From assembly GCA_031416075.1 (NCBI GenBank), contig JANOSY010000067.1:1-40657 (forward strand): DNA of 40,657 nt, given 5' to 3'. Within the stretch, counting starts at the first letter, position 1. Every line of letters begins with the position of its first letter. Under the pieces are notes generated by a model. The model did no database searches, was not told the DNA's origin, and was given only the letters and a program-made list of their open reading frames with translations. Shown here one piece after another: positions 2,685 through 24,991 of the stretch. Made by a program: the position numbers and the translations under genes. Origin of the DNA: Candidatus Tenderia sp. (GTDB lineage: Bacteria > Pseudomonadota > Gammaproteobacteria > Tenderiales > Tenderiaceae).

Positions 2685-2982
2685 GAGCTACCAGCCACGC
2701 ATCGGCATGTGGATAGATGGCATTAACAGCATCAATGTGCCACTTAGGAATGCCCAGGCCAGGCAGATCATTAGTGACGGTGACGGCATGCACTATTTTC
2801 AATGTGCGATCCTGCTTGCCATATCCAAGTGAAAAATGGATTTTTCTGCCACTGTAGATGTTTTTGAGGTTCCAGCCACGATGATCAAGCGGACGGATCT
2901 CGCAGTCCTGCACCCCATTCTTGATTTTGTTGTAGTACTCACGGAAAAGTGGACAAAAGAAAGGTTTATCCATGACCATCAC
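2677..2982 (-). CDS. ASCH/PUA-like domain protein
   Basis: PLFREYYNKIKNGVQDCEIR...FSLGYG resembles the ASCH GxKxxExR signature; overlaps both neighbours. Confidence 0.55.
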   Translation of the reverse strand: MMVMDKPFFCPLFREYYNKIKNGVQDCEIRPLDHRGWNLKNIYSGRKIHFSLGYGKQDRTLKIVHAVTVTNDLPGLGIPKWHIDAVNAIYPHADAWLVAHV

Positions 2983-3224
2983 GCACCCCCTTTATTCAGC
3001 AATGAGCGAAGATGGTTTATCTTTTGTTTTCCGATCGCTTTTTCTGACGTCGATAATGGCCTGCGGTCGAGCTGATTATGGCCAAAATGCCAACCTCTAA
3101 CCCACGCGTTTTTTTTATCAACACGTCTATACTGGCAGTCATCAATCGGTTGCCCACGTAGAGCGGCCATTTGCCCCTCTTCGAAAAAGGGCTGCATTGA
3201 TATATTTACATCAGCCAGCATCAT
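2979..3224 (-). CDS. Rmf/CrpP-like small protein
   Basis: FEEGQMAALRG...DCQY...AWVRGW matches the ribosome-modulation-factor pattern G..AG..G...CPY...W..GW. Confidence 0.6.
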   Translation of the reverse strand: MMLADVNISMQPFFEEGQMAALRGQPIDDCQYRRVDKKNAWVRGWHFGHNQLDRRPLSTSEKAIGKQKINHLRSLLNKGGA

Positions 3225-4719
3225 CCACCCCCATCAAACCCCCCACCATCAACGCCTGCTGCGTCAGCTCCCCCAGCCGCTGGTCGTCAATCTTGGGATA
3301 CATCTCCAGCAGCCCGTCGCGGAACTGCTCCAGCGTCTCCACCCCGTCCAGCAGCGCCCGGATCGGCGCGGCCATGTCAGCAATGATCTTGTCCGCCTCT
3401 GTCGCGGCCTGGTCAGTCAGTTTGTCGATGGCGTCACCACCATCTGCACCGGCAAACTCATGGGCGCAATGGGGGCAGCTGTGGGCGTTGAACTGTGCGG
3501 GGGGACCAGGCATCGGCCCATCACGGGACAACACCGGTTCGCCATCAACAGGTGCCGGAATTTTCAGCCAGCGATAGGCAAATGAGGCGGGCACATCCAT
3601 CATCTGGCGCGCCTTATCCAGCGCCTCCACCCGGCTGGTGTTAACATCCTCCTCCTCAAAAAATTCAAACACCGGGGCCACCGCCCCCGCCACGTTGAGC
3701 GCCGTGATCCAGCGCATCAGCTCATTCATGGTATCGCAAACGATTTCCCGGTCGGCTTCGGTCACACCATCCGCCCGCGCCGAGTGTGTCTCTGCCGCCG
3801 CCCGGCTGCCCTGGCCATTGATCTCGGTCGCCAGAGTTTGCGACGTAAGTGCCTTGCTCATCTCGCGATTGCACGACTGAATCAGCCGCTCCTGAATCGA
3901 CTCACCGCCCTGGCTCAACGACAACAGCTCTACCGATCCATCATCCGGTATCGCCGCTACACCGTCTTCCACCATGCCCGCCAGATTCTGCGCCAGCGAC
4001 TTAAAATCATCCGGGGATGCGCCGCGTGGTAGCTTGCCAATCGCCCACGGCACCCCGTATTTTTCGCAAAACTTCACGAAAAATTTAAACCCTGAATGTT
4101 TGAATGTGTAGGGCCAAAAACAGGACGAAAACACCGCCACCCCATAGGGATTGTCATACGTCGGCATGTGGCGCGATACCAGCCACTTGTAATCATCCAC
4201 CACCTCACCGCTCATCGGCTTGGCGCGGGTCCGCAGCAGCAGCTCACGGTCCGGGCCGTAGCGAAACAGCCGCCCCGGTTTATCCAGCAGTCGGGTCGGC
4301 ATCAGCACATCGCCCTGCTTGGCCCATACCACCTCATGGATGCGCTGGCCGCGCAGCACCGCGCTAAACATATTCCAAAAAACATCGCCCCAGCTCATGC
4401 CCGGCGCGGGGCGCTGGCTCATGTATGCCTGGCACAGCTCCAGCGCCCGCAGATCAGCCGGGGCATCGCCACCGGCGCGCAGCCGCCACTCAAAACCCAG
4501 CAGCCCGGCACGGGTAGAGCGCAGCTCCCCCATCACATGGCTATCCAGGGCGATGGCCTCAAACACCTCTTCGCTTTTGCCCATCTTGCGCAACACCACA
4601 TCCGGGTTGGGCAGGAAGTTGAGCACCGAATAAAAATCAGGGTCGTTGTGATGGCTGGCCATCTGCTGCATCAGCGCCGCATTGCCCTTGGCCATTTTTT
4701 TTATGTTCTGTTTTTGCAT
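3211..4719 (-). CDS. Portal protein (Mu gp29/DUF935)
   Basis: NPYG, EKYGVPWAIGK, SKALTSQTLAT and GSRAAAETH motifs; ATG at 4719 just after the terminase stop. Confidence 0.93.
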   Translation of the reverse strand: MQKQNIKKMAKGNAALMQQMASHHNDPDFYSVLNFLPNPDVVLRKMGKSEEVFEAIALDSHVMGELRSTRAGLLGFEWRLRAGGDAPADLRALELCQAYMSQRPAPGMSWGDVFWNMFSAVLRGQRIHEVVWAKQGDVLMPTRLLDKPGRLFRYGPDRELLLRTRAKPMSGEVVDDYKWLVSRHMPTYDNPYGVAVFSSCFWPYTFKHSGFKFFVKFCEKYGVPWAIGKLPRGASPDDFKSLAQNLAGMVEDGVAAIPDDGSVELLSLSQGGESIQERLIQSCNREMSKALTSQTLATEINGQGSRAAAETHSARADGVTEADREIVCDTMNELMRWITALNVAGAVAPVFEFFEEEDVNTSRVEALDKARQMMDVPASFAYRWLKIPAPVDGEPVLSRDGPMPGPPAQFNAHSCPHCAHEFAGADGGDAIDKLTDQAATEADKIIADMAAPIRALLDGVETLEQFRDGLLEMYPKIDDQRLGELTQQALMVGGLMGVDDAG

Positions 4720-4720
4720 A

Positions 4721-6337
4721 TCAGTATCCTGATGTATCAACGTGATCACGGCGCATTGTGCCCGCCGTCACAATACGGGGCGCCCCCCCGGCGCGGCTGA
4801 CGGCTAGCATCCACAACATCTGTAGCGCATCCGGCCCATCATCATGGTCGGCCTTTGGCCAGTGGCGCAGCTGCTCAAGCAGCGTAGTCTGTTGGGGGTG
4901 AAATCGAATCAAACCGTTTTTAACGTGGGGCTGGAGCGTCTCGATACGCAGCGCCTTGTCGGTATGAGGGGTGATAGCCATCGCCGCCACCGGCACACCC
5001 CGCGCCGCTGATCGCTTCACCAGCTCGGTGCGCAGAAACTCCTGAAACTGCACCGCCTCCACGCCCCACACCATGCAGCGGTACTCCTTTTCAAGAGCGA
5101 TAACATCCTCAATGATTTTGTCCGGCAGCCGTTTACAGATGGCCGCCTCCACCACGTCGAGTACTCCAGTCTCCAGATTCAGGCCGCCCACCAGAATGGC
5201 CGACGGATCGCGCCCCTTGTTGTTCTTGCCCAACGACGGATCAACCGCGCCGAAGAAGACCCAGCGCGAAAATGGCTGTATCCAAAACTGCACCTCGCCA
5301 AACGGTGCATCCTTGATGCTGATAGGGTCGTTCTGCAACTCGGAGTCAAACGACTCATGACCATCACGGGCACGGACGATCATCAACTTCACCAGCGGGC
5401 GGGCAGCGGGCCAGCTCACCACTGCGCCGCGATCCATCTCTGTCTGACGTTGCCGGTAAAACTCTTGCGCATCAGCCTCGCCCTGGTTCAGCAGGATCTC
5501 TTCGAACTTGTCCCATAGGTCCATGCGATGGGGCCACTCGATCACGGCTTGGAAGCGCTTGGTTTTCCAGAGCGGATTTTTGAGGATGCGCGACAGCACC
5601 GAGTCGTAGTGCAGCACGGTACCGATATAGACCAGATCCATCGACCCATCTGCCGCCCCCAGCTTGAGCACCGTCTTCTTCAGCCAGCCCTCCAGCTTGT
5701 CGCGCTGCTCCGGGCTGCGCACGTTCTCGTCATTCTCCAGGTCGTCGCAGATCACCAGATCAGGGCGGTGTGGGCCGTGGCGCAGGCCGCGCATACGCTT
5801 GCCGGAGCCGAATGCTTGCAGCTTGATGTTCTGGCTAGTGACAATCACACCCTGCTGCCAGACGCGCCCTTGCCCCACCGCCTCGGGGAAGTCCATCTGT
5901 AGGCGGGGGTTGGCTTCGAGTTCGGCCTTAATCGCCTCCAGCATGGTGGCCGCCTGGTCAAAGGCGTCCATGATGATCGGGATGTAGTGCTTGCGCCGGT
6001 AGACCACGCACCAGACGGCGAATATCTGCGAGGTGATGGTGGACTTCGCCTCGCCACGCGGCGCGGCGATGCCCAGCATCTGCCCGGCAGGGTTGGCCAC
6101 CACAGCAGGCAGCTCGGCATATAGGTACTCATGCAGCAAGCTGTTGTCGTATTTGATGTAATGCGGAAAGTAGGTGCGGGCAAAAAACTCCAGGCTCTCG
6201 CCACTCTGCTTTTTGCGCTTGGCTGTCGCGATGGGATCGACTTCAAACCCCATCACCTCCGCCTCGATCATGCGGCGCAGATCACCGGCCAGGCTGGCCA
6301 GGTCGGTGATGAACTGGCTGGATGAGAGCTTAGCCAT
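4721..6337 (-). CDS. terL: Terminase large subunit
   Basis: APRGEAKST Walker A, ICDDLEND Walker B, AVDPS and HDDGPDA nuclease motifs. Confidence 0.95.
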   Translation of the reverse strand: MAKLSSSQFITDLASLAGDLRRMIEAEVMGFEVDPIATAKRKKQSGESLEFFARTYFPHYIKYDNSLLHEYLYAELPAVVANPAGQMLGIAAPRGEAKSTITSQIFAVWCVVYRRKHYIPIIMDAFDQAATMLEAIKAELEANPRLQMDFPEAVGQGRVWQQGVIVTSQNIKLQAFGSGKRMRGLRHGPHRPDLVICDDLENDENVRSPEQRDKLEGWLKKTVLKLGAADGSMDLVYIGTVLHYDSVLSRILKNPLWKTKRFQAVIEWPHRMDLWDKFEEILLNQGEADAQEFYRQRQTEMDRGAVVSWPAARPLVKLMIVRARDGHESFDSELQNDPISIKDAPFGEVQFWIQPFSRWVFFGAVDPSLGKNNKGRDPSAILVGGLNLETGVLDVVEAAICKRLPDKIIEDVIALEKEYRCMVWGVEAVQFQEFLRTELVKRSAARGVPVAAMAITPHTDKALRIETLQPHVKNGLIRFHPQQTTLLEQLRHWPKADHDDGPDALQMLWMLAVSRAGGAPRIVTAGTMRRDHVDTSGY

Positions 6338-8407: not shown

Positions 8408-8911
8408 CTATGTGATAATAAAATCTGCCAACCGCGCCATCCAGCCAGAGGCGAACACCGCCTGTGTTGGATCTCGGCTAATAATCTGCCCGTAAAATAG
8501 GCACCGTTGCGCCAGTACCCGCTTATATGCCATCTCAGGCACAGCCCGATTAATCGCTGCCAGGGTAATCGGTCCTATCACACCATCAGACTTAGTCGCC
8601 ACAGCCTCTTGTAGCCAGCGCGTAGCGCGGTTAACGCCGTGGTTAACACCACAGTCGATCACTAGAGCTTGCAGTGCTGGGTTTTTGATTTGATCAAAAC
8701 GAGGGGCGGTAATGTAGTCATGGTGATAGATGGCGCGGGCCTCGGCCTGCGTCATCTTTTTCACATCATCGAGCGTCACCGGTTGTTTACGCCACGCCGA
8801 TAAAACCGCCTGCGTAATACCAAAATTGGTCGGCCCACCACGGTCAGCCTGGTGGTTCACAAACCCACCTTCGCGCCGCAGTATGTCACTAACAATGGAA
8901 TAGAGATTCAT
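8408..8911 (-). CDS. Endolysin, glycoside hydrolase family 108 with peptidoglycan-binding domain
   Basis: REGGFVNH.ADRGG.TNFGIT, D.GVNHG, DGVIGPITL, F..GW..R. Confidence 0.92.
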   Translation of the reverse strand: MNLYSIVSDILRREGGFVNHQADRGGPTNFGITQAVLSAWRKQPVTLDDVKKMTQAEARAIYHHDYITAPRFDQIKNPALQALVIDCGVNHGVNRATRWLQEAVATKSDGVIGPITLAAINRAVPEMAYKRVLAQRCLFYGQIISRDPTQAVFASGWMARLADFIIT

Positions 8912-9081
8912 AACGCCACCCGCCCGCCACAATGCAAATTAAAATGGCTAACCACATGCTCACGAGTCAGGGGCTGATAGTGGGGAGGGACACTTGTCAG
9001 CGCCTGGGCGCGAGAGGATCGCGAAGGGAGCGCGATGATCTCAGCAGCATAGTGTCGTGGTCGTTTGTTGTGATTAGCCAT
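8908..9081 (-). CDS. Small hypothetical phage protein, 57 aa (not in ORF track)
   Basis: MANHNKRPRHYAAEIIALPSR...; stop overlaps the endolysin ATG (ATGA); first gene after the late promoter. Confidence 0.65.
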   Translation of the reverse strand: MANHNKRPRHYAAEIIALPSRSSRAQALTSVPPHYQPLTREHVVSHFNLHCGGRVAL

Positions 9082-9087
9082 GTATCA

Positions 9088-9132
9088 ATCATGGCGATAA
9101 TGAGGGGGATAATGCAGTGGTGAAATGTTTCA
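9088..9132 (-). promoter_or_regulatory. Late promoter for the lysis/packaging operon (putative Mor/C-type activator site)
   Basis: Minus strand TGAAACATTTCA-CCACTGC...27 nt...CATGAT; same motif and spacing occur ahead of the protease gene. Confidence 0.7.
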
Positions 9133-9156
9133 AGGCCCCAGCAGGGCAGCGGCTAA

Positions 9157-9570
9157 TTAGCCTACGTTACTATCATCAAACAAGTCAACCTGCTGTCTTG
9201 CGGGGATGCGTATTTTACGCAGATTAATAATGTGTCGGCGGGTCAAATTGTTCTGGCGGGCCAGGGTACTCAGCGATTCATCAGCAGCGGCAATCGCCGC
9301 ATTGCGCAGCTGTTTAAAGGGCTTGCCCGACGTGGGCAGATCCCGGTAGTACTTGCCCGCCAGGGGCGATGCCACCAGCGCCGCAATCGCCGCATCACTG
9401 ATCACATCACGCAGCGTTGTTTTGCTTTCAATGTGAGTAGGCAATGTGGTCGGCAGACCATGCCGCGCATCCAGCAGCGCGATCGTCTCCGCCAGACCAA
9501 TCACCTTCACCAGCTCCCGCATCTGCGGCGGCAGCAGGCGCTCATTAATCAATGACAAATCATCAGCCAT
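9157..9570 (-). CDS. Mor/C-family late transcription activator
   Basis: LLPPQMRELVKVIG N-terminus; RNAAI...SLSTLARQNNLTRRHI C-terminal HTH. Confidence 0.85.
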   Translation of the reverse strand: MADDLSLINERLLPPQMRELVKVIGLAETIALLDARHGLPTTLPTHIESKTTLRDVISDAAIAALVASPLAGKYYRDLPTSGKPFKQLRNAAIAAADESLSTLARQNNLTRRHIINLRKIRIPARQQVDLFDDSNVG

Positions 9571-10021
9571 TAACATTCACTCCTTCACGTTGTGCCCATT
9601 TTTTTAGTGATTCAGTGCAGGTGCTCAGGTCCGGCGCAGAGGCCCATTGCAACCGCGCCTTTTTAGTCACCCGGCTGCACCACTTCACCATCGCCGCCTC
9701 GCTGCGGTCATGGGCAACACCCTCATCCGCCAGTCGGCACCAAATCGCTGTAATCTTTTCAATCATCGGCTGCCGCCACTCAGATGCGCCGCGCGCCGCG
9801 CTTTTGGATTTTGGCTTAAACCCTTTTTGTTTCATCGCCTCCACCGCCTGCGCCAGCTGCGTGATGGTCATCGTCGTGGCAGAGATGCGGCCCTCTTTAA
9901 CAGTCGCCCCGTACTGGGCCAAAAAGGCCCGATACAGGTCATCATCAAAGCCCAGCTGCTTCTTACCGATAGAGAGCAGCTGGTACTGTTTGGCGCGGGC
10001 TGGGGAGGGTTTAGTTGTCAT
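9563..10021 (-). CDS. gemA: GemA/gp16 (DUF1018) regulatory protein
   Basis: KQLG.DDD.YR..L...G...S...MT; KI.A.W..L...G...D.SE; ESLKKW..R. Confidence 0.85.
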   Translation of the reverse strand: MTTKPSPARAKQYQLLSIGKKQLGFDDDLYRAFLAQYGATVKEGRISATTMTITQLAQAVEAMKQKGFKPKSKSAARGASEWRQPMIEKITAIWCRLADEGVAHDRSEAAMVKWCSRVTKKARLQWASAPDLSTCTESLKKWAQREGVNVNG

Positions 10022-10350
10022 CTATTCTGCCTAGTATAATTATCAAGGTTTTTGTCTATTACACTGTTGGGCGTCTCTACAATGATCGTTATTTTCACGT
10101 CTCTGGTGCATCGCAAAAACTCGCTCATGTCCATGTCATTTTCTCGCTTTTCCTCTGGTAGGTCTTCGCCAGTGCGCTCCCACCAATCTCCGCCAGCGAG
10201 AGACTGAATTTTATATATGTCGTCCAGCGTAAAGAGGTCGCCGGTCTTAAATTTGTGTGTCTTTTGAGTCTTTGCCATATCTCTCTCCGATCATCCGGTA
10301 GAGAGCAGCTGGTACAGTTTGGCGCGGGCTGGGGAGGGTTTGGTTGTCAT
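9966..10350. repeat. 56-bp direct repeat (9966-10021 and 10295-10350) of the gemA 5' end
   Basis: 53/56 identical by manual alignment; the second copy encodes the stub MTTKPSPARAKLYQLLSTG*. Confidence 0.9.
10018..10278 (-). CDS. Hypothetical accessory protein, 86 aa
   Basis: GGAGAG RBS; stop overlaps the gemA ATG; lies between the two repeat copies. Confidence 0.7.
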   Translation of the reverse strand: MAKTQKTHKFKTGDLFTLDDIYKIQSLAGGDWWERTGEDLPEEKRENDMDMSEFLRCTRDVKITIIVETPNSVIDKNLDNYTRQNR

Positions 10351-10961
10351 ACTTTTGCATCTGAAATCTTAAATGATGCAAATAGCCGTTCTTCTGCTTG
10401 GCAAATAAGCTCCATAAATTGCAGATACTCTATCTCGGTAATCCCGTAGTCATCGCCAGGCAGAACATCGCTCAGTATTTTTATGGCTGCCCCTACCTTA
10501 GCCTTATTTGTTACCTTGATATAATCAGTCTCGTTAATGTCAAGCGCCCTATTACGCTGCTGAAGTACTAACGGAAGATCACAACCAGCCAATGCGCGTT
10601 TGGCTTTATTGGTATCAATCTGTGATGTTCCATCGACAGATTCTATCTGCTCAATTAAATCAGATAAAACACCATGTAATAATTCAACCTCGGTTTTTGA
10701 TGCAGGCATAATTATTTCGGTATCCTGCGCTGGATCACCAAGGATCATCGTTCCCGCAACATAGATGCGCAGCTTTATCTCACCGTACTCACTGGCAAGC
10801 AGCTCTGCTTTCTCTCTGCCATCTCCCGTGTACCAAAGCTGCCAACCGCTGACACGGGTGCAGGTTAACTCCAGGCCATAAATCGCATCGAATAGTCTGA
10901 TGCGTTTACCATTAAACGCTACATCAATATCATGGTAACTACTCATCATTTTCCCTCTCAT
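10347..10961 (-). CDS. Hypothetical accessory protein
   Basis: 204-codon ORF coupled to neighbours; AT-richer than the core. Confidence 0.7.
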   Translation of the reverse strand: MRGKMMSSYHDIDVAFNGKRIRLFDAIYGLELTCTRVSGWQLWYTGDGREKAELLASEYGEIKLRIYVAGTMILGDPAQDTEIIMPASKTEVELLHGVLSDLIEQIESVDGTSQIDTNKAKRALAGCDLPLVLQQRNRALDINETDYIKVTNKAKVGAAIKILSDVLPGDDYGITEIEYLQFMELICQAEERLFASFKISDAKV

Positions 10962-11398
10962 CTCATCCTGTATTTAATCTGCAATGCCACAGTAGTAGCC
11001 ACGTTTTTTGACACCCTCGGCACGATAACAACATTCAGCGCCAGCGCCTTGCCCTCTAACATTATATAAGGCGCTATCATCGGTATCACCCCACCATCGC
11101 GCCACTGGTATCCATCCACCACACCGGTGATGATGCCGCTGCTGAACGTGCCATTGTCATAGGGCCGCCAGCCATAGGCGGCATAGCGTGACTGAGTGGA
11201 TTGGCTGTTGCGATACATCCCCGCTGTGATGAAGCGGCGATTATCCATCTGCCACTCCAGCCCGAGGCCAGGGTTGGAGCCATTTTTGCCGGAGGTAAAC
11301 GGATGCCAGCTGACCCCTCCCACATTCAGCCAGGTGCTGTCCGCCACGGCGACCGGCGCTGCTAATGCTATCGATAATGCCAGTGCAAATTTAAACAT
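10958..11398 (-). CDS. PagP-like outer-membrane beta-barrel protein
   Basis: Signal peptide, SWH, N.NPGLGLE, G.YRNS, G.V.GY, P..AP, terminal beta strand; GGAGG RBS. Confidence 0.7.
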   Translation of the reverse strand: MFKFALALSIALAAPVAVADSTWLNVGGVSWHPFTSGKNGSNPGLGLEWQMDNRRFITAGMYRNSQSTQSRYAAYGWRPYDNGTFSSGIITGVVDGYQWRDGGVIPMIAPYIMLEGKALALNVVIVPRVSKNVATTVALQIKYRMR

Positions 11399-11410
11399 GG
11401 TGACCTCCGT

Positions 11411-11483
11411 GGCTGCTCATCAGTCCAGTGCTACCACACACTGGAGACCGCTCGTATTACTGGTGGGCGGTTTCGCAAAAGGC
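11411..11483 (-). ncRNA. Type II hammerhead ribozyme
   Basis: Minus strand UGC-GAAA-CCGC-loop-GCGG-UC^-UCCAGUG-loop-CACUGGA-CUGAUGA-GCA; all core nucleotides and stems I-III present; cleavage predicted between 11446 and 11445. Confidence 0.9.
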
Positions 11484-11590
11484 CCGTTACGTGGGCCATT
11501 CGGCATTGCCTCGGGAGAAAGAGTAAGCCCGATCTTTGCTGCTGCTGATGGTCGGCTCAGTCAGCGCACCGGCGCGTTAGCGCATGGAGT

Positions 11591-12223
11591 TTAAAGCGCT
11601 GCTATGTCAAGCGAAATTGGCTGATATTGGTCAGAATCGCCTACCCGTTCATAAACCCGCATATACATTTTTGAACCGGCAATTCTCATCGAATCACTAA
11701 TGGCCTGCATGGCGCTAAGCCATTTTTCGTCATGAATGTTGAGACTTTTAAGGCCGAGTATTCTGCCAGTACTGACCTTGCCCTCAGCATCGGTTTTAAA
11801 TGCATGATCGACCAGTGCCTTGACGTTTGCGGGAGAGCCTTCGGTCCATTTATGGATGCACTCATCAATGAGCGTCTTGGCTACCTGCAACCGTTCATCA
11901 AATACAATATATTCAGAGACGGAGCGTTGCACCTTATACTGCCCATCAAAACTGGACAGCGTCACGTTGCCCTTGTTGCCGCCGACCTTGGCCCCGTATT
12001 TCTCGCCAGAAAGCTCGATGAATGCCTCAATATCGCCCATCGCTCCGGTCTTGAATTTTAACAGTGCTGTCTGTTGAGCCAGTGCGTTGGCGACAATCTC
12101 ACGCACCAGCGTGTCACGGTCACGGTCGATCTCTTTCACCATTTCAGTAGGCACTAGCCGACCTTGCGTATCGCGCATGTGCCCCTCTGGTATGTGTTGC
12201 TGTTTTAATGCGGCGTTGCTCAT
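11591..12223 (-). CDS. DUF3164 family protein
   Basis: G.M.D.QGRLVP...VKEID..RD; GNVTL.SFDG.YKV; FDERLQ.AK.LIDEC. Confidence 0.88.
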   Translation of the reverse strand: MSNAALKQQHIPEGHMRDTQGRLVPTEMVKEIDRDRDTLVREIVANALAQQTALLKFKTGAMGDIEAFIELSGEKYGAKVGGNKGNVTLSSFDGQYKVQRSVSEYIVFDERLQVAKTLIDECIHKWTEGSPANVKALVDHAFKTDAEGKVSTGRILGLKSLNIHDEKWLSAMQAISDSMRIAGSKMYMRVYERVGDSDQYQPISLDIAAL

Positions 12224-12605
12224 GGCGTTACTTCCTCTTGTTGGTTTAACTCAATTTCGACCTGTTTCAACAGGTCATGGATACTCAGTTTTTTAAGCGC
12301 TTTTTCACGGCGCAGCGATGAGAGTGCGCGTTTGCGTCCTTGTCGATGTCGGCGCTGTTGGTGGCGTAGTAGTAGCCGCCCGCATCGCCGGAGGTGTGAA
12401 CGATCGGCTCACCATCACGCTGTAACTGCGCCACAATTGAGCGCAGCAGGCGGGTTTGATTGACCTTAAGCGCAGGAATAATGGGCCGCCCGGTCACGTG
12501 GTGATACAGCTGGTACATGGTGATGCAGTTGCCCGGCCCTTTGTGTTCGCGCAGCAGGCCGCGCACGGTGAGTATCATCTGTTCGCGGTCCAGTTCCGCC
12601 CTCAT
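12220..12605 (-). pseudogene. Winged-helix protein, apparently frameshifted near 12337
   Basis: HKG..N.I.M..L...V...R.LR..V..L...G.PI...GGYY N-terminus; a -1 frame continues RKRALSSLRREKALKKLS... to a stop overlapping the DUF3164 ATG. Confidence 0.6.
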
Positions 12606-13141
12606 TGAGCACCCCCTTTTTTGCGTCCCAGCAATCCGCCCAGGTGTTGTGCCGCCAATGCCTTACGGGCAGCGACATCAACCTTTTGTGGTCCGGGCTG
12701 TTCGGTTTTTTGTGGGCGGTTGCGCAGTCGTTGCTCCTTTTTCTGCTCCTGTTGGCCACTGGCCTTTTGGCTCATGTTAGCGACGATGCTAAACAGATAG
12801 TTATGGTCAGCCAGTGGCAGGCGCAGCTTGTCCCGTGCGGCCAGGGTGATGTCCAAGCCGTCGCGCCAATACTCCAGCGGGGCGGCCCAGCTGCTGCCAT
12901 CACGCTGTACCTCGGCGGACTGAATGGCCGTGCCCAACTCGCCCAGGCGGTTGGCTAGCGCGTCCATGCGCATCGCCCGCTTGGCAGGACTAAACAGCCC
13001 CATGTATTGAATGATGCGCGACCCCAGTGTGGGGGCGATAGCCAACGCTGCCCCCAGCGCCTGGCGCGCCGCCGCATCCGTTAACGCCTGCTCCAGCGTG
13101 AACTTATAACCACAGTCCGGGCATACCCCCAGCAGCGCCAT
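12602..13141 (-). CDS. Conserved Mu-like hypothetical protein with N-terminal CxxC
   Basis: CPDCG; Y.GLF.P.KRA; L.LPL..H.YL; TAATG overlap with the upstream gene. Confidence 0.8.
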   Translation of the reverse strand: MALLGVCPDCGYKFTLEQALTDAAARQALGAALAIAPTLGSRIIQYMGLFSPAKRAMRMDALANRLGELGTAIQSAEVQRDGSSWAAPLEYWRDGLDITLAARDKLRLPLADHNYLFSIVANMSQKASGQQEQKKEQRLRNRPQKTEQPGPQKVDVAARKALAAQHLGGLLGRKKGGAQ

Positions 13142-13350
13142 TAGAATGCCCTCCAGCCAATACGCAGATAGAGCGGACCGATGATCAACGTGATGGCGCG
13201 GGTCAGCGGTGAGCGACTGGTGGAGAGGTTGAGCCAATGCACCCGATGCCCCAGCAGTACATTGTCATGCCACAACGTGCCGGGGGTACTCAGTCCCACA
13301 AACAGCTGCCAGCGTGGCCCGATCACGCCCACAATGGGCCGGGTATTCAT
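13141..13350 (-). CDS. Hypothetical protein, 69 aa
   Basis: Start and stop both overlap neighbours (ATGA, TAATG). Confidence 0.55.
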   Translation of the reverse strand: MNTRPIVGVIGPRWQLFVGLSTPGTLWHDNVLLGHRVHWLNLSTSRSPLTRAITLIIGPLYLRIGWRAF

Positions 13351-13937
13351 GCCGCCACCTGCTGGGCTTTGAGCTGTTCCCACAACACAATAAAACCGCA
13401 ATAGGCCCGTGCTGATGTGGTGGGGTTATCAAACAGCGCCAGCGTCTCATCGTCCGGTGTTGGCAATCCCCAGCCATTGCCGCGTGAGGGCAACAGGTGG
13501 TATGCCTCGACCGCCAGCGCCAGCCGGTCATAATGTTTAATGACGTCGATGATGCGTTGTGCCGGAGGGGGCAGGTCGTATGCTTGATGGATGGTGTATT
13601 GCAGGGCGCGCTCGATGTCACCCACCACGTGCGATAGGCGGGCGATGTTTTTTAACGGGCTGACGATGTCGCCGATGTAGGCCTCGTGTGCATCATGCAA
13701 CAGGGCATACAGCGCGGCGCGGCGGTCTTTGGTCTCATGCAATACCCGAGTCGCTACCCAGCAACTGTGCTGCGCCACGCTGTAGCTGATGCTACCGCTG
13801 GTGTGGCCATTAAAACGGGACTGGCGCGACAATGACCAGGCAATGTCATGGATGTAAATCTGCTCAGGTTTTGGGTTGACCAGGTCCACCACCATGCCGG
13901 AGTGTGTTTCAACCGTAAACGCCAAATTATTCATCAT
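13347..13937 (-). CDS. HD-domain phosphohydrolase (YfbR-like 5'-deoxynucleotidase)
   Basis: DIA.SLS...RFNGH, YSVAQHS, ALLHDAHEAYIGD. Confidence 0.88.
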   Translation of the reverse strand: MMNNLAFTVETHSGMVVDLVNPKPEQIYIHDIAWSLSRQSRFNGHTSGSISYSVAQHSCWVATRVLHETKDRRAALYALLHDAHEAYIGDIVSPLKNIARLSHVVGDIERALQYTIHQAYDLPPPAQRIIDVIKHYDRLALAVEAYHLLPSRGNGWGLPTPDDETLALFDNPTTSARAYCGFIVLWEQLKAQQVAA

Positions 13938-14058
13938 CACCCCCATCGCGATAATCGTTGGCACGTAGCAGTGCCGCCAGGCCGATACCCAGGCAGACGC
14001 CGAGTACCACACACAAAAAACAGACTAGTAAAAATTGAGTGTCATACGGCATTGTCAT
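13927..14058 (-). CDS. Small single-TM protein, 43 aa (not in ORF track)
   Basis: MTMPYDTQFLLVCFLCVVLGVCLGIGLAALLRANDYRDGGDDE; overlaps both neighbours. Confidence 0.6.
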   Translation of the reverse strand: MTMPYDTQFLLVCFLCVVLGVCLGIGLAALLRANDYRDGGDDE

Positions 14059-14381
14059 GCTTGCTTCCTCCAGGATTTACGGGGTGTCCAGCAGTGGTGT
14101 TTCATCCGTTCGATGAACGCGCCATCGCGGTGCTGTGCAGTGGCCGGGATCAGCGCGTCATGCTCGGCCTCCGCCAACTCATGCATTACCGCCTGCTGTA
14201 TCGGGAGTAATGGCAAAACATCATCCTCACTGCACGCCTCGCTACATACCTGGTTAATAATCTCTTGTGGATGCAGCAGAAACGTATCAAACAAAATCCC
14301 ACGATGCAGGATGGCTGGCAGGGCGATATAAATGCCACCCCAGTAGTGGATGTACTCATCGGGAAACGTTGTCATGGTCAC
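14055..14381 (-). CDS. Hypothetical protein
   Basis: Translationally coupled to MuB. Confidence 0.7.
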   Translation of the reverse strand: MTMTTFPDEYIHYWGGIYIALPAILHRGILFDTFLLHPQEIINQVCSEACSEDDVLPLLPIQQAVMHELAEAEHDALIPATAQHRDGAFIERMKHHCWTPRKSWRKQA

Positions 14382-15403
14382 GCCCTCGCCATCTTGGTAA
14401 AGCCCAGCGCCTGCTGGCCCACCTGGAAAATAAGCTGTGCACTAAGCGGGATATTTTTAGCCAGCCCAAAATCGCGCACCCCTGGGATCAGTGATTTACA
14501 CAGCACCCGCATCGAGCCGCCGCACATCTGCCAGAAGGCGTCGCGGATCTCGTCCGTCACCTCGCTATCATCAGAAAAGGCGGCCTGCACTACGGCGTGG
14601 GCATCATCTTCGGTGATGGTTTTGATGATCGGCGGCCAGTAGTTGACACGGCTGCTGATCTGGCCAAAACGGGAATCGTCCAGGCCGCGTTTGTTGTCCG
14701 GGCGCAGCATGTTGTTGAGTCGTGCCGTGCCCGACAACACCACGCCAATCTCGGCGTTGTCGCTGATGCGGCGGATGTACTCCAGCGTTTGCGGTGTAAC
14801 GTTGTCCGCCTCATCCAGGATCAGCAGCGCATCGGTGCCGGTCAGGCGATTGATGATCGCGTCCATGCGATCAGCCTTGGTGCCCTGGCTGTTTTTACGC
14901 ATCCCCTCGACCTTAGCCCCTGCTTCGCGCAGCAGGTGGTCCAGCATCACCAGGGCGGTCATATCGGGCACGGCCTTGATCAGCAGCACGTTGTCGTGGG
15001 TCTCTTTGTAGCGCAGCAGCGCGGTGGTTTTGCCGGTGCCCACCGAGGCACTGACGATGCAAAAAGAGCGATACAGCCGCGCCCGTTTACAGGCGGCCTC
15101 CACTGCCCGATAGACGCTGGTCGGCACAAACGGTGTGCTGCGTTTGCGCTTGGCCTCTTCCGCGTGACGCTCGATGGTGTCGAGCATCGTCTGCACGTCG
15201 CGGCTCACTGGGCTGGGGTATTTGCCGCGCAATATCTGATTCAGTTTTGTGGCCTTGATGGCGGTGCGGGCGCACAGCCACGCCTGCCCGAGCTGGCGTT
15301 TGTTGAGGTACTCCAGCACCTGCCCCACGTCGCGGATGTCCTGCTCGGTATACACCTCGCTCCACTCGGTCGGGGTGGTGAATGTTTGATCTGTATGGTC
15401 CAT
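14378..15403 (-). CDS. MuB-like AAA+ transposition ATPase
   Basis: N-terminal HTH, ASVGTGKT Walker A, LLILDEAD Walker B; follows the transposase. Confidence 0.92.
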   Translation of the reverse strand: MDHTDQTFTTPTEWSEVYTEQDIRDVGQVLEYLNKRQLGQAWLCARTAIKATKLNQILRGKYPSPVSRDVQTMLDTIERHAEEAKRKRSTPFVPTSVYRAVEAACKRARLYRSFCIVSASVGTGKTTALLRYKETHDNVLLIKAVPDMTALVMLDHLLREAGAKVEGMRKNSQGTKADRMDAIINRLTGTDALLILDEADNVTPQTLEYIRRISDNAEIGVVLSGTARLNNMLRPDNKRGLDDSRFGQISSRVNYWPPIIKTITEDDAHAVVQAAFSDDSEVTDEIRDAFWQMCGGSMRVLCKSLIPGVRDFGLAKNIPLSAQLIFQVGQQALGFTKMARA

Positions 15404-15423
15404 CTGATAAACTCCCGTTGTAG

Positions 15424-17136
15424 TTAGTAGTTAGTGTCAAAAATATCCAGCGTGATCTTGGCGCTGGTGGCTGCATCGGGGCCGGGTGTTACTGCACTCG
15501 GCTCCAAATTTGTGTATATCAATCCCTCGTCTTCGTGGTTCTCTACCATCAATCCGCCACCCTCATTCAGGGCGTCGATATCGGCCTGCACATCTACGTG
15601 GCTGATGGATAACGCCGCACGGGCTTCGAGTTCGTTTTGTTTGTGTTTGAGGCGGCCAATCTGGCCATCCAGGCGGCGCTGTTGTGCCTCGGCAATGCGT
15701 GAGGCGGGCAGGTAGTCGGCCTTGCGGATTAGCCCGGCGTCACATATCCAGCGGCCATCACGGGCTAGGATGCGCACGCTGCTGTCATCCAGCAGGTCAT
15801 ACTCCACCACCAGGGGTTCGCCGTTGTAGGCCACCAGGGCGGCAGACCCATATTCGCGGTTATGCAGGCGCACCGACTGGCGCCCCACTACCCGATCAAT
15901 GCGCGGCCGCACAATGGCATCGCTGGGGGTATGCAGGGGGCACTGTTCACGCTCGGCCCAGACCTGCGCCGGGGTACGGCCATCCAGCCCTTTATGTTCG
16001 CGGTGGTGGTATTTGTCGATCCACGCCGCCAGCCCGGCGATGTAGCTTTGCAGGCTGGGCAGTTGGCGCTTGCCGGTTTTTACTTCGCGGGTGATCAGTT
16101 GCAGCGCTTCGGCGGCCATGTCAGCACCGCAGTAGGTGGGCAGCCGTTTGCCAAAGTCGCGCTCCATCGTGCCAAAAAACCGCTCTACCTGCCCCTTGGC
16201 CTTGGCGTTGTAGGGCAAGGCAAACATCGCCTCAATATCAAATCGGGCGTAATAACCCACGCTCTCATCGTTCATCATCTTGCTGGCATAGCCGCTGCCG
16301 TTATCGATGTGCAACATGGCGGGTACATGGTCATGGCCCACCAGGGCGCGGCTCAGGGCAAACAGGGTGCTGTGGCTGCTCTCTGATTCACTGATGTACC
16401 AGCCCGCAATGTAGCGGCTGCCGACATCGATCCAGACCGTCAGCTCAGGCCGCCACACATCACCGGTAAACGGGTGGGCGATATAGGCATCCACGGTGTG
16501 ACCGTCGCCCTGGTAGATAAACCCGGCCGGGATGCAGCCGGTATCGCGCCGCACAAAGCCGCGCTGGCTGTTTTTGTAGAGTCGTGCCCCCATTCGTGCG
16601 GATGATTTCTCGCGCATATTGGCAGGCAGAGCGTTGATGTAGCCGCGCACACGGGCGTCGCTGGCATCGCTAAATTGGTGCTCCTCACGCAGCTCGCGGG
16701 CGATGCTGCTGATGGTGCGTTTGGTTGGGGTATTCCAGAGCCGGTAGGCCAATGCCTCCCAGCCGCCCACCTTGCGCTCGCTGCCCTTATGGGCAGGGGC
16801 AGCGGCGACATTGTCACCGCTCAGGTGTTGGCGATATTTATCATCCCAGCGGTAAAACGTGGCCCGATTGGGGCAAGCCGGTTTGTTGGGTTGTAATGTG
16901 GCCAGCGCCACCATCACTGTGGCGGGCAGTGCCTGGGCAGCATGCTGCGCCTCAAACACGGCGATGGCAGGGTTGAGTGACTCCCCCCGTGCATCGCCGC
17001 GCAGCTTGCGCACGAATCTCATCACCACCACCAGGGCGTCGCGTTTGGCCTGCTGTTTACTGTTCAGGTGCACGGCGGTATCGGTGTGGTCAACAAGGCG
17101 CAAATGAGGCGCAGCAGGCAGTGCCCGTGCCATCAC
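15424..17136 (-). CDS. MuA-like DDE transposase
   Basis: YQGDGH, LHIDNGSGY, KGQVERFF catalytic triad; YH.REH.GL.GRTP; Mu-transposase C-terminal region. Confidence 0.95.
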   Translation of the reverse strand: MMARALPAAPHLRLVDHTDTAVHLNSKQQAKRDALVVVMRFVRKLRGDARGESLNPAIAVFEAQHAAQALPATVMVALATLQPNKPACPNRATFYRWDDKYRQHLSGDNVAAAPAHKGSERKVGGWEALAYRLWNTPTKRTISSIARELREEHQFSDASDARVRGYINALPANMREKSSARMGARLYKNSQRGFVRRDTGCIPAGFIYQGDGHTVDAYIAHPFTGDVWRPELTVWIDVGSRYIAGWYISESESSHSTLFALSRALVGHDHVPAMLHIDNGSGYASKMMNDESVGYYARFDIEAMFALPYNAKAKGQVERFFGTMERDFGKRLPTYCGADMAAEALQLITREVKTGKRQLPSLQSYIAGLAAWIDKYHHREHKGLDGRTPAQVWAEREQCPLHTPSDAIVRPRIDRVVGRQSVRLHNREYGSAALVAYNGEPLVVEYDLLDDSSVRILARDGRWICDAGLIRKADYLPASRIAEAQQRRLDGQIGRLKHKQNELEARAALSISHVDVQADIDALNEGGGLMVENHEDEGLIYTNLEPSAVTPGPDAATSAKITLDIFDTNY

Positions 17137-18158
17137 TTATCCCCTTTACCTTTGCGGGGTGCAGGCACCGGGGCCAGATCCACCTGCCGCAGGCGGGCGC
17201 GCATCTGGGTATCGTTGCTAAATTGCAGCGCCAGCCGTTTAGCCCGTTCTACCTCCAGTGTGTCAAGCTCTGGCGGGAAGACATCCACATCACCCTTAAA
17301 GCTGGTGAAGGTATCAAACCCTTTATCAAACAGCGCCTGAGCCGTCGCCAGCAGCCCTTGCAGGCCGTACATCAGCGGGTGTGAGATGGCGTCGATATCG
17401 GCAGCGCTGGTATCTTGTGGCAGCAACGCCACCCGCTCCATCACCTCTTGCAGGGTGCGGGCATTGGCGCGCAGGGCCTCGGTCTCCTCCAGCACCGCCC
17501 GGCGCAGCTCCTTTATATAGAGTGGTTGCTCAGGCAGGGCGCGGGTACGGCGGGCCTCTTCGTCCAGCGCGGCCACCCGGTCACTCATGCGGTCGTTCTT
17601 TTTGAGTTCGTTATCGAGCTGCTTGCGGAGTTGGACGATCTCTTGCAGCTGGTCGCGGCTGGTACTGTCGATGTTATCCAGGGTGCCGTCATTGAATAGA
17701 TCATCTACCACCTGGGCGGGAAGGCGGGTTAAAACGTCGAGCTTGCGCCCGACCAAATCAACGGCGCGCCGTTGATTTGGCTTTGAGAGTGACGCCACCA
17801 GAAAGGCTGCTCTCATCGCCTCGCGGGCTGTGTTTGGATGGGCCCCGTTGTCTTTTAGGCGGCCCTCAAAAGCCCCGTGCCCCAATTCGCGTTTAAGTAA
17901 TATGTAAAAAAAGCCAAGTTCAATTTTGGATTTCGCAACACCCCCCTCTTTCTTTCTGGTGCCCTCCTCAAGGGCTGCGCCCGTAAGCGCCCGTCCATCG
18001 TGAATGGGTAGGTCAAGGGTTGTGTCATCATTTAATGATAGCAGGCTGTTTACCAGCGCCTGCGCCTCATCGTCATAATCGATTGCGGCGGGGGTGGTTA
18101 TTTTTTTCTGTTCCAGCTCGCCTTCGATGACGGTTGTGGTTTGTTTTTTATTGGTCAT
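17133..18158 (-). CDS. DUF3102-like early protein with coiled coil
   Basis: ELG...ILLKRELGHGAF...A.EAMR.A; immediately upstream of the transposase. Confidence 0.75.
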   Translation of the reverse strand: MTNKKQTTTVIEGELEQKKITTPAAIDYDDEAQALVNSLLSLNDDTTLDLPIHDGRALTGAALEEGTRKKEGGVAKSKIELGFFYILLKRELGHGAFEGRLKDNGAHPNTAREAMRAAFLVASLSKPNQRRAVDLVGRKLDVLTRLPAQVVDDLFNDGTLDNIDSTSRDQLQEIVQLRKQLDNELKKNDRMSDRVAALDEEARRTRALPEQPLYIKELRRAVLEETEALRANARTLQEVMERVALLPQDTSAADIDAISHPLMYGLQGLLATAQALFDKGFDTFTSFKGDVDVFPPELDTLEVERAKRLALQFSNDTQMRARLRQVDLAPVPAPRKGKGDK

Positions 18159-18445
18159 TGGTTCATCTCCAAATATTTTGCAAATCCGCGTTCGAGTTCC
18201 GCGTAAATAATCATCAAGGCGATCCCGAATGACGCCGTCTCAACGCCCCGTGCCGAGTCGTTGGCGCTGCTGTATTGGCGATGGGTGTCGATCCACTCAT
18301 TCAGCGCTTCGCCCAGCAGTGGTTTGCCATCCTTGATGGGTACGTCTATGCCATATTTGTCTGGCCATGAAACAGCCTTCGCGATGTACTCGCGCAGTAG
18401 TTCGTTCGATGGCATTTCTGCCGCCCAATTAATTTTGTCGCTCAC
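18155..18445 (-). CDS. Short paralogue of the N-terminal domain of 17133..18158
   Basis: DVPIKDGKPLLGEALNE versus DLPIHDGRALTGAALEE; GGAGG RBS, GTG start. Confidence 0.7.
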   Translation of the reverse strand: MSDKINWAAEMPSNELLREYIAKAVSWPDKYGIDVPIKDGKPLLGEALNEWIDTHRQYSSANDSARGVETASFGIALMIIYAELERGFAKYLEMNQ

Positions 18446-18446
18446 T

Positions 18447-18932
18447 TCAACCTCCCAGTCGTTTACGTAAATTCCGCTCGCGGTGTGCGAGGCGGCTCTT
18501 GTTTAAAATCGTTTCACCCAGCTCGGCGGCAATCGCCTCTTGTTCATCCATCACAAACAGCCCCAGTGCGCCGGTCAGCACCTCCAGTGGGGCCAGGTTG
18601 CCGTGGGTTGCCCAGATATAGGCGGGCAACATCTCGGCAGGAAAGGGCCGGTCTTCGGCGCTGGTGGCCAGCCAGCCGTTGAGCTGGCGAGGGGTAATGC
18701 TCGGGCCGTCTGGCAGGCACAGGTTCATGCGCTCCACCACCCGCTCGCGGCTCACGCCATGTTTTTGGGCCAGCTTGGCGCTCTCTCGCAAAAACACCCG
18801 CAGCTTGTCGCGCACGTCCAGGTCGGGGGCGTTGGCGGCCCGATACTCTGGCTCTACCTGCGCCAGTTGCTGGAACAGATCGGGCTGTTCACTGGTAAAA
18901 GATTTGCCCGCTCTATCCACTGACGCGGCCAC
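18447..18932 (-). CDS. CII-like phage regulatory protein
   Basis: SRERVVERMN...IT..QLNGWLA.S.E.R.FPAE.LPA; start may be the GTG at 18920. Confidence 0.75.
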   Translation of the reverse strand: MAASVDRAGKSFTSEQPDLFQQLAQVEPEYRAANAPDLDVRDKLRVFLRESAKLAQKHGVSRERVVERMNLCLPDGPSITPRQLNGWLATSAEDRPFPAEMLPAYIWATHGNLAPLEVLTGALGLFVMDEQEAIAAELGETILNKSRLAHRERNLRKRLGG

Positions 18933-18983
18933 TCGGCTGGGCTAGACTTTGGTCACGACAAACATGCAAGGCCCAGGAGGTGA

Positions 18984-19418
18984 GTGATGAATAGCAATAA
19001 CGAATGGCGCGGTTACAGCGTGTACGAGGATGGTCTGGCTCAGGAGCTGATATGCGGCTTAACCGAGACAGAGGTGCGCCAACTACACGCCAGACTGCAA
19101 CAGTTAGGCGCCGCAGGATGGTTGGATTTTTTGAGCACATACGGCTCAACCTGCGCCCGTTACTTAGGTGAATCCGCACAGGGTCGGTCATCATTTGCAC
19201 ATGACGGCGAAGCGCTGCTTCATGTGTACGGCGCGATATGGTTGGCGCAGATAGCCGCCCAGTTTGGTCACCGCTTTGATGATCCTGATCTTCAGCAGCC
19301 TGGCCATCTGCGCGAGTCACGCGCGGCCCGTGGTCGGCTGCTGTTAGATGCCCAGCGCTTTGATGTTGAGGAGTGGCCGTTTGATGAGCCGTCTGATCTT
19401 CAGAACCCGTTTGTTTAG
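18984..19418 (+). CDS. Hypothetical protein antisense to the early operon
   Basis: Strong AGGAGGT RBS, globular-looking composition, stop overlaps the convergent stop at 19415. Confidence 0.65.
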   Translation: MMNSNNEWRGYSVYEDGLAQELICGLTETEVRQLHARLQQLGAAGWLDFLSTYGSTCARYLGESAQGRSSFAHDGEALLHVYGAIWLAQIAAQFGHRFDDPDLQQPGHLRESRAARGRLLLDAQRFDVEEWPFDEPSDLQNPFV

Positions 19419-19759
19419 TCATGGTGGGCCACCGCATCAGGCAGAGATACGGGCATCAGTAGACGGCCTGCTGGATCGGCTGGACCGGCTGGAGATACGG
19501 TTATCTCAACCGTCCGGTCCGGGCAGTCAGCGTGATAGCGGGCACCATTAACCGTCACCATGCCCTGGGCATCGGGCTGCCGAGTGATCACCTTGGGCTG
19601 GGTTAACAGCTCCAAAAACATCACCAGCGCCTCGGCATTGCTCACCAGCTGGCGGGCAGCTGCCAGGGCACCGGCATAATCACCGCACTCGTAGTTGATG
19701 ATGGCGGTGGCGGTGTCGCGCTCTACCAGCAGCAGGGTGATGGAGGGAATGGTATTCAT
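19415..19759 (-). CDS. Hypothetical early protein
   Basis: ATGA overlap with ner. Confidence 0.65.
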   Translation of the reverse strand: MNTIPSITLLLVERDTATAIINYECGDYAGALAAARQLVSNAEALVMFLELLTQPKVITRQPDAQGMVTVNGARYHADCPDRTVEITVSPAGPADPAGRLLMPVSLPDAVAHHD

Positions 19760-19989
19760 ACCGCCACCCGCCGCGCAGGCCGTGAGGGTTGTGAATACCG
19801 GCCATCAGGCCACAGGCGGCGCAGCGCGATACCGGTCTTGGCTGAGATGGTGCTGGCAATGTTGTATGATGTAGCGGTGCCGCGAGTCACCTGACTCACA
19901 GCGGAGCGCTCCACGCCCAGATGGTCGGCAATGCGGCTGGGGGGCCAACCGCATTTGATCAGGGCGGCATGAATGTCGGCGTAGTGCAT
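19756..19989 (-). CDS. ner: Ner-like HTH regulator
   Basis: MH.ADI.AAL...G....IA..LGV..SAVS.V; LWP.RY C-terminus; divergent from the repressor. Confidence 0.85.
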   Translation of the reverse strand: MHYADIHAALIKCGWPPSRIADHLGVERSAVSQVTRGTATSYNIASTISAKTGIALRRLWPDGRYSQPSRPARRVAV

Positions 19990-20010
19990 ACGTGGACTCC
20001 TGTAGTGTTT

Positions 20011-20034
20011 GGCGGTGTTACAGCACCGCCTTTT
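20011..20034 (+). terminator. Hairpin GGCGGTGT-TACA-GCACCGCC followed by TTTT
   Basis: 8-bp stem with one G-U, T tract on the + strand; lies in the ner leader. Confidence 0.45.
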
Positions 20035-20073
20035 ATTGGTGTGGTTAACTGCATTTATTTAGCAGGTGATGGA

Positions 20074-20102
20074 ATGATAGGAACAAACGTTCCTTGGGTC
20101 AA
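20074..20102 (-). promoter_or_regulatory. Early lytic sigma70 promoter with operator in its spacer
   Basis: Minus strand TTGACC-17 nt-TATCAT; spacer holds the palindrome AGGAAC-AAAC-GTTCCT; second GGAA-N6-TTCC at 20122-20135. Confidence 0.75.
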
Positions 20103-20107
20103 GAAGA

Positions 20108-21350: not shown

Positions 21351-21433
21351 TCAAGGAGGGTGTGGCAATGAAAGAGATTGGTGCCGAGATCGCATTCGAG
21401 CTGATGTTTGAATTGCTCAAAGGGCCGTAGTAA

Positions 21434-21466
21434 GTAGGGTGGGCACGTTGTTTGTGCCCACGCCAT
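21434..21466 (+). repeat. GTAG-type REP-like palindrome, copy 1
   Basis: GTAG-G-GTGGGCAC-GTTGTTT-GTGCCCAC-GCCAT; identical 33-mer at 21725. Confidence 0.85.
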
Positions 21467-21666: not shown

Positions 21667-21724
21667 CGTCTTTCCTCTCCGGGCCAGCCCGTAGCCGCGC
21701 TCCATAGACCGCGTTTAATAGCAG

Positions 21725-21757
21725 GTAGGGTGGGCACGTTGTTTGTGCCCACGCCAT
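21725..21757 (+). repeat. GTAG-type REP-like palindrome, copy 2
   Basis: Identical to 21434-21466, same orientation. Confidence 0.85.
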
Positions 21758-24990: not shown

Positions 24991-24991
24991 A

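Follow-up and report, generated by a model that had tools for sequence, protein, structure and literature searches.

A predicted type II hammerhead ribozyme at a gene boundary in the early operon of a Mu-like prophage of Candidatus Tenderia

We analyzed a 40,657-nucleotide (nt) stretch of DNA from Candidatus Tenderia sp. (contig JANOSY010000067.1 of assembly GCA_031416075.1; hereafter the window, meaning the whole stretch), which carries a Mu-like prophage. Judged by its sequence, the minus-strand segment 11478-11407 is a type II hammerhead (a self-cleaving ribozyme) that belongs to the pseudoknot subtype and is intact. Its place is the early operon of the prophage, between a DUF3164 gene and a gene for a PagP-like protein. 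Its most likely role, to which we assign a probability of roughly 60%, is to cut the polycistronic early mRNA at this gene boundary, leaving ends capped by hairpins and a fixed leader on the downstream RNA.

Core, helices and position of the ribozyme

The original prediction, made from the sequence, had proposed that the mRNA strand carries a complete type II hammerhead and suggested that Infernal and the Rfam family Hammerhead_II (RF02276) be used to verify it. This search returned a minus-strand match at 11478-11407 that covers the full model (positions 1-66 of 66) and scores 61.1 bits (E 2.2e-10) against a gathering score of 37. Within the 40.6-kb window no other Rfam match was above threshold, the 3.49-Mb assembly holds no second RF02276 match, and none of 14 control genomes gave a match in the same covariance-model search. 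A scan of positions 8800-20200 by E-value listed the hammerhead and four rows at chance level, with no further ribozyme in the early region; the element is the only one of its phage.

Read along the minus strand, the locus runs UUGC, GAAA, a CCGC...GCGG hairpin (11470-11448), U, C, a 22-nt hairpin, CUGAUGA, GCAG, CCAC, GGAGG, five bases and ATG. This is the order of the type II permutation (stem II strand, GAAA, hairpin III, GUC, hairpin I, CUGAUGA, stem II strand). Loops close off stems I and III and stem II is open, both in the Rfam structure line and in the minimum free energy (MFE) fold; MFE folding recovers all three stems in 81 nt as well as in a 221-nt context. The core elements of a type II hammerhead are all present. 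According to the sequence and the Rfam alignment, CUGAUGA occupies 11417-11423 and GAAA, corresponding to G12 A13 A14 A15.1, occupies 11471-11474, with A11471 paired to U11447. The cleavage triplet at 11446-11448 is GUC, which is of the NUH type, and by comparison with the family we expect scission at 11446/11445.

Stem III (11449-11470) pairs CCGC at 11470-11467 with GCGG at 11451-11448, giving four pairs plus the A-U pair and a 14-nt loop. The stem I hairpin (11424-11445) is 22 nt long and reads UCCAGUGU-GUGGUA-GCACUGGA. Its eight pairs are formed by 11445-11439, together with a U.G pair at 11438/11431, opposite 11430-11424, and they enclose the 6-nt loop GUGGUA. Stem II is made of GC(UU) at 11475-11478 opposite GCAG at 11416-11413. 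The feature typical of the subtype is the pseudoknot between loop I and the 3' tail, in which GUGGU (11437-11433) faces GCCAC (11413-11409); the 3' strand of stem II and the pseudoknot strand (G)CCAC together fill 11409-11416.

Directly after the pseudoknot strand comes a Shine-Dalgarno (SD) sequence, GGAGG at 11408-11404, followed by a 5-nt spacer and the ATG of the PagP-like gene at 11398-11396 (together 11396-11408). Cleavage at the predicted site would leave a 5' leader of 47 nt (11445-11399), the same distance as had been claimed at the outset. Direct reading of the sequence also placed every motif of the original prediction where it had located it on the minus strand. One detail did not hold. 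The proposed extension of stem II by GGC/GCC is unlikely because GCC is shared with the pseudoknot strand and GGC belongs to a neighbouring GC hairpin that is kept in a related prophage (described below).

Relatives in viral contigs and cultured phages

To place the element among its relatives, a pattern derived from the core (GAAAC...GTC...CTGATGAGCAGCC) was scanned over the viral contigs of IMG/VR. It found at least 120 stretches with 152 ribozyme instances, many of them on contigs of 33-40 kb; the counts given here refer to the matches listed. By its design the pattern holds constant the core and the first six bases of the tail (GCAGCC); the phages are related, so the counts are non-independent. 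Mu markers were located by tblastn with the proteins of the window itself.

The structure alignment contains the 149 distinct copies among these matches. Across these copies 90.5% of the cells assigned to helices are paired, against 71.0% in shuffles, and the covariation score is 0.502 against 0.150, a value reached by none of 500 shuffles. When one strand was slid by 1-3 columns, 28-48% of the cells were paired and the score was 0.06-0.10. In stem I, 98.2% of cells are paired and each of the eight pairs has changes on both sides; for stem III the corresponding values are 93.3% and five of seven pairs. In stem II only two pairs are conserved. The pseudoknot is found in the relatives as GG/CC in 148/148 and U-A/G in 138/148, figures to which the search pattern contributes by partly fixing the 3' side. 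The helices of the family are thus backed by compensatory changes among relatives.

The ribozymes also share a place in their genomes. A Mu-like marker is present in 95 of the 120 loci and near 114 of the 152 instances, and in no instance does the marker lie on the opposite strand. Downstream of MuA, MuB, DUF3164 or p211 and not downstream of GemA lie 101 instances. With respect to GemA, 52 are upstream and five downstream, and a single one precedes MuA.

On a finer scale, the elements sit tightly between genes. An open reading frame (ORF) of at least 45 codons starts no more than 400 nt downstream in 150/153 instances, and the distance from cut to start is 30-59 nt in 128 of these 150 (47 in the window). 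The upstream stop codon falls 0-19 nt before GAAA in 124/149. In 146/153 the hairpin of stem I has a length of exactly 22 nt, and an SD-like motif is found in 111 of the 135 short gaps after GCAGCC, starting immediately after it in 47 of them.

The genes on either side are of many kinds: the 146 downstream proteins fall into 73 clusters and the 143 upstream proteins into 63. The commonest upstream neighbours are HU-like, DUF2786/DUF7168, DUF3164 and Gam proteins; downstream, DUF2786/DUF7168 and GemA are the most frequent. A locus holds from one to eight ribozymes, and 23/121 have two or more. The largest set, eight type II hammerheads in about 4 kb, was observed on a 57-kb viral contig (L041, 2821-6745), in which the proteins of the window detected no Mu marker. 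Copies within a locus are slightly more alike than copies from different loci (0.585 vs 0.483), and the nearest neighbour comes from the same locus for 11/53. Any homogenisation of copies inside a genome is weak.

Three named and cultured Mu-like phages, reached through weak BLAST hits, carry full RF02276 matches as well: Pseudomonas phage MP38 (L129, 4973-5044; 62 bits), Chromohalobacter phage YPCBV-1 (L130, 4978-5042; 78.3 bits) and Shewanella phage vB_SspM_MuM16-2 (L131, 4955-5031; 59 bits). Their records annotate no feature at these sites. As in the window, the ribozyme is on the coding strand, in an early accessory gap before gemA and a Mor or late-activator gene. The neighbours differ from those of the window. 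The gene before the ribozyme is Gam, DUF2786 or one that has no name, and each ribozyme begins at the upstream stop codon, whereas the window's is preceded by a 112-nt spacer.

In Perreault 2011 (PMC3088659), natural type II hammerheads are reported as common in bacteria and often located in prophages, and the pseudoknot between loop I and the 3' tail is described as needed for fast cleavage. The window element is of the same kind. It shares with those ribozymes the core, the three-stem topology with an open and very short stem II, the pairing of the GUGG loop with the tail after CUGAUGAG-CAG and the intergenic position in a prophage operon (PMC3088659). What sets it apart is a private stem I (best identity 59% over the variable stems among 148 relatives), a pseudoknot of five pairs, the fifth of which is G-C in 30/148 relatives, and the 112-nt spacer.

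Other studies describe similar elements. According to Olzog 2021 (PMC8782182), three type II hammerheads of Desulfovibrio vulgaris, also members of this Rfam family and near phage-like genes, cleave in vivo and in vitro. For these three (loc 1-3) cleavage was demonstrated by cyPhyRNA-seq and in vitro assay (PMC8782182), while for the window it is predicted from sequence. Type II hammerheads related to the window's cleave in both settings (Perreault 2011, PMC3088659; Olzog 2021, PMC8782182). A 2023 paper that summarises Roth 2014 and Weinberg 2015 states that the strongest associations between ribozymes and genes are with genes of Mu-like phages, for an unknown reason (PMC10085705); the window adds one more case. 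The supplements of Perreault 2011 and Olzog 2021 may already give gene contexts, and the arrangement of stop codon, ribozyme, SD and start, or the slot from DUF3164 to gemA, may have been quantified by Roth 2014 and Weinberg 2015. Among the matches listed by a literature search, no paper joined a hammerhead ribozyme with D3112, DMS3, B3-like phages, Casadabanvirus or BcepMu.

The early operon and its ribozyme-free counterpart

Profile and fold matches bear out the genomic context given in the original prediction, which had put the ribozyme among Mu-like early genes with a PagP-like gene, gemA and a Mor-like gene downstream of it. The early operon reads MuA, MuB, DUF3164, ribozyme, PagP-like gene, GemA and Mor-like gene, all on the minus strand. 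On a single strand it combines a MuA-type DDE transposase, a MuB-type ATPase, gemA and a Mor/C-type activator, and its helix-turn-helix (HTH) repressor is divergent.

Profile matches identify the MuA-like transposase at 15424-17136 and the MuB-like ATPase at 14378-15403. Several small genes stand between the latter and the DUF3164 gene (11591-12223; PF11363, E 1.1e-82), which is the cistron upstream of the ribozyme. Downstream are the PagP-like gene (10958-11398; phrog_3600, E 5.5e-15) and an orphan ORF of 204 amino acids (10347-10961) with 43% GC against 56% in the window and no Pfam, PHROG or NCBIfam match; it is probably a recently acquired accessory gene. Next come gemA (9563-10021; PF06252, E 2.7e-27), the Mor/C-family activator-like gene (9157-9576), which matches phrog_836, 'late transcriptional activator', with E 2.3e-15 and has no Pfam match, and an endolysin gene identified by profile (8408-8932). 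All these genes share the minus strand. The divergent HTH repressor gene (20108-20539) lies at the head of the early string, and beside it a minus-strand site at 20074-20102 agrees with the promoter consensus in 10 of 12 positions; by this consensus match it is a candidate early promoter. On the minus strand no terminator-like site was called from 14296 to 9000.

The first gene after the ribozyme encodes 146 amino acids with a signal peptide. An AlphaFold model built with 51 sequences (mean predicted local distance difference test, pLDDT, 92.5) has a helix at residues 2-12, corresponding to the signal, and eight strands, which points to an eight-stranded outer-membrane beta-barrel. The best fold matches in the PDB are PagP structures (3gp6/1thq; E 7.7e-7, TM 0.70). 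The protein has no Pfam or NCBIfam match and does not fall into PF07017, a family touched weakly by 6 of its 51 relatives (best E 3.1e-5). An invariant His and an invariant Asn-Ser in its family presumably recall the His and Asp-Ser of PagP, a candidate likeness. On the strength of the model the gene product has a PagP-like fold and is not shown to be PagP. A full HMMER search found 917 representative relatives at E up to 0.001, where a word-index search returned only the protein itself; in viral contigs the gene was found neither with the single protein nor with a 5-sequence alignment.

The most informative comparison was provided by G007, a genome of the same family and another genus that contains a syntenic Mu-like prophage. 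Protein identities between the two prophages are 67% for p211, 45% for p106, 53% for the PagP-like protein, 56% for GemA and 44% for the Mor-like protein, and the flanking coding DNA is 65-71% identical. The intergenic regions 5' of the PagP-like genes align and have in common a block of about 34 nt and a GC hairpin with its U-tract.

In the window, the 34-nt block lies in the 112-nt spacer between the DUF3164 stop codon and the ribozyme. This spacer has no similarity to any of 127 compared loci or to the rest of the window, and neither a notable ORF nor a consensus promoter. The 34-nt block (11539-11571, minus strand) is a noncoding element, 97% identical to its counterpart in the G007 prophage. 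Exact copies are confined to the window and the syntenic G007 site among the sequences searched; viral contigs gave no match, and one-mismatch matches in genomes of the family were at chance level. The block has no promoter consensus and no Rfam match. It can form a hairpin of five pairs.

Directly 5' of the ribozyme stands the GC hairpin (11477-11497, minus strand), in which GGCCC (11497-11493) faces GGGCC (11485-11481), followed by UUUU. It is terminator-like, although it has too few U's for the terminator rule used. G007 keeps this hairpin through one compensatory pair change. The hairpin may end or protect the upstream mRNA.

The ribozyme of the window, from GCGAAAC to GAGCAGCC, occupies exactly the place between the U-tract and the SD sequence; in G007 the U-tract runs straight to the SD. 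No RF02276 match was found anywhere in the G007 genome, and its locus has no Rfam match of any kind at E up to 5. No target duplication was seen at the indel. By the evidence of this junction the ribozyme is a discrete and dispensable unit, subject to gain or loss. Among host relatives, RF02276 was found in 0/60.

Several other observations concern the organization of the window. The first 56 nt of gemA are duplicated right after the stop codon of the orphan gene, as a direct repeat with 95% identity (9966-10021 and 10295-10350) that resembles a recombination scar in the accessory region. An early minus-strand ORF at 13347-14012 has a weak match, just under the cut-off, to HD-domain/YfbR-like 5'-deoxynucleotidases (PF12917, E 9.7e-6).

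Unusually for a Mu-like genome, the virion genes form two divergent arms: a minus-strand arm at 1440-6337, after the early genes, with terminase, portal and a MuF-like gene, and a plus-strand arm at 21940-37267, after the repressor gene, with head protease, major head protein, tape measure and a J-like tail protein. As the window is a whole contig, this split may reflect a misassembly or an inversion. A 39-nt direct repeat (21428-21466 and 21719-21757; 95% identical, 291 nt apart), which precedes the head protease gene, contains the palindrome GGGTGGGCAC...GTGCCCAC.

Possible roles of cleavage

Stop codon, ribozyme, SD and start are always arranged in the coding-strand sense, a layout that fits cleavage of a polycistronic early RNA at a gene boundary. 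A long early transcript would fold while being made and cut itself after C11446. The two products, held together only by a stem II of three to four pairs (two to four in the family's type II form) and the tertiary contact, would then separate.

The upstream mRNA, from the transposase through DUF3164, would terminate 145 nt past the stop codon in hairpin III, with a 2',3'-cyclic phosphate as its end group. The downstream mRNA, with the PagP-like gene, the orphan gene, gemA, the Mor-like gene and beyond, would have the first base of stem I as its 5'-OH end, and through the pseudoknot the loop of this stem would be fastened to the bases immediately before the SD sequence. A 5'-OH end escapes the 5'-monophosphate-dependent route of RNase E, and hairpins at the 5' terminus stabilise mRNAs. 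The cut would thus separate the fates of the two halves and provide the next gene with a structured leader of 47 nt that stays the same whatever precedes it. The analysis shows the sequence, fold class, position, strand and comparative layout; cleavage in the host, protection of the ends and an effect on expression are the inferred parts of this scheme.

Such an element would be a natural counterpart of RiboJ, an engineered ribozyme that serves as an insulator between the upstream RNA and the ribosome-binding site. The latter derives from a type III satellite-RNA hammerhead, and the whole ribozyme stays on the downstream RNA. In both, self-cleavage just ahead of the ribosome-binding site would remove the upstream context and leave a structured 5' end; RiboJ, however, is synthetic, and the type II form of the window would leave one hairpin on each product. 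According to PMC6206723, RiboJ placed ahead of a gene in E. coli raised the transcript about 2-fold and the protein 2- to 10-fold, which indicates that such an arrangement can matter.

Parts of this scheme have been put forward before. Perreault 2011 (PMC3088659) proposed that shorter mRNAs are made from long phage transcripts by processing, and a 2019 review (PMC6765202) suggests that processing of polycistronic RNA yields products that differ in stability or translation efficiency. The same review and the 2023 paper agree with the remark in the original prediction that the role of phage hammerheads is unexplained (PMC10085705, PMC6765202).

Several observations speak against cleavage at the boundary in this phage, or against an intact ribozyme. 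The fold energy is ordinary (z 0.23; 106/200 shuffles fold at least as well), so the identification rests on the covariance-model score and on covariation in the family. Stem II of the window has three to four pairs against two conserved ones, the third, U-A, being found in 45/149 copies and followed by a G.U, and a longer stem II lowered activity in one tested construct described in Perreault 2011 (PMC3088659). The stop codon lies 116 nt before GAAA, which is atypical against the usual 0-19 nt. The G007 prophage has the same spacer, hairpin and string of PagP-like gene, gemA and Mor-like gene without any ribozyme, and at the DUF3164 loci of other genomes 0/7 carry one (no Rfam match at E up to 0.1). 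Finally, the accessibility of the start region falls upon cleavage in the window: its unpaired probability (-15..+3) changes from 0.570 to 0.485, in a model that ignores the pseudoknot. The relatives, which are non-independent cases, show a modest rise under the same model, from 0.488 to 0.572 (98/132). Exposure of the SD sequence by cleavage was not used as support.

Alternatively, the element may act as DNA, either as a conserved 60-70-bp patch for the swapping of accessory genes between Mu-like phages or as a selfish hitch-hiker, with cleavage being incidental. This would agree with the presence or absence of a discrete block at the orthologous junction, with the very diverse flanking genes and with the mosaic accessory region, which includes the 43% GC gene and the duplicated 5' end of gemA. 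Nevertheless, stems I and III carry compensatory changes, which show that RNA pairing is under selection, and a DNA-level function appears unlikely also in view of the strict coding-strand orientation (0/114 opposite), the small excess of similarity among copies of one locus and the absence of a target duplication at the indel.

The original prediction saw in cleavage a possible timer for late expression. In this view cleavage would exist specifically to uncouple the distal mRNA bearing the Mor-like gene from the transposase mRNA, and would determine when middle and late transcription begins. The position of the phage's single ribozyme between MuA/MuB and gemA/Mor agrees with such a timer, and 101 of the 114 instances with markers come after early markers and not after GemA, so that nearly all would part the two blocks. 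However, the copy number (one to eight per locus) and the exact boundary vary, the neighbours form 73 downstream and 63 upstream clusters, five instances follow GemA and one precedes MuA, and the syntenic G007 prophage has its Mor-like gene with no ribozyme. A gene-local, optional role fits this varying number and position, the diverse neighbours and the ribozyme-free prophage better, and we regard the timer as quite unlikely. The claim that the cleavage products differ in stability coincides with the suggestion already made in the review cited above (PMC6765202); nothing we found supports the timer built upon it. The element and its setting are already known, the stability argument is published, and the timer alone is new to the original prediction.

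That the motif is a relic which no longer cleaves usefully in this phage, as the 116-nt gap, the long stem II, the loose stem III loop, the unremarkable fold energy and the dispensability in the sister prophage might suggest, is very unlikely given that all core positions match, the score is 24 bits over the cut-off, the eight pairs of stem I have been kept despite several double changes from the consensus and the pseudoknot is longer than in most relatives.

Processing of the early mRNA at the gene boundary therefore remains the role we favour. On a more tentative note, type II hammerheads of Mu-like phages might be portable punctuation units of about 66 nt, gained or lost cleanly before an SD sequence. 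The type II permutation would then be favoured as it alone leaves a hairpin on each RNA end, and the unit would serve as a natural insulator for swapped accessory genes. We regard this generalization as possible and still doubtful.

Mu-like phages are the densest habitat known for the self-cleaving ribozymes of bacteria and phages. The copy in the window adds no new kind of element, and it is found in the best-known setting of its family. What it offers, together with G007, is a natural comparison with and without the ribozyme, in which the spacer, the hairpin and the PagP-like, gemA and Mor-like genes are the same. This pair and the cultured phages MP38 and MuM16-2 would allow a direct test of how cleavage affects mRNA stability, translation and timing.

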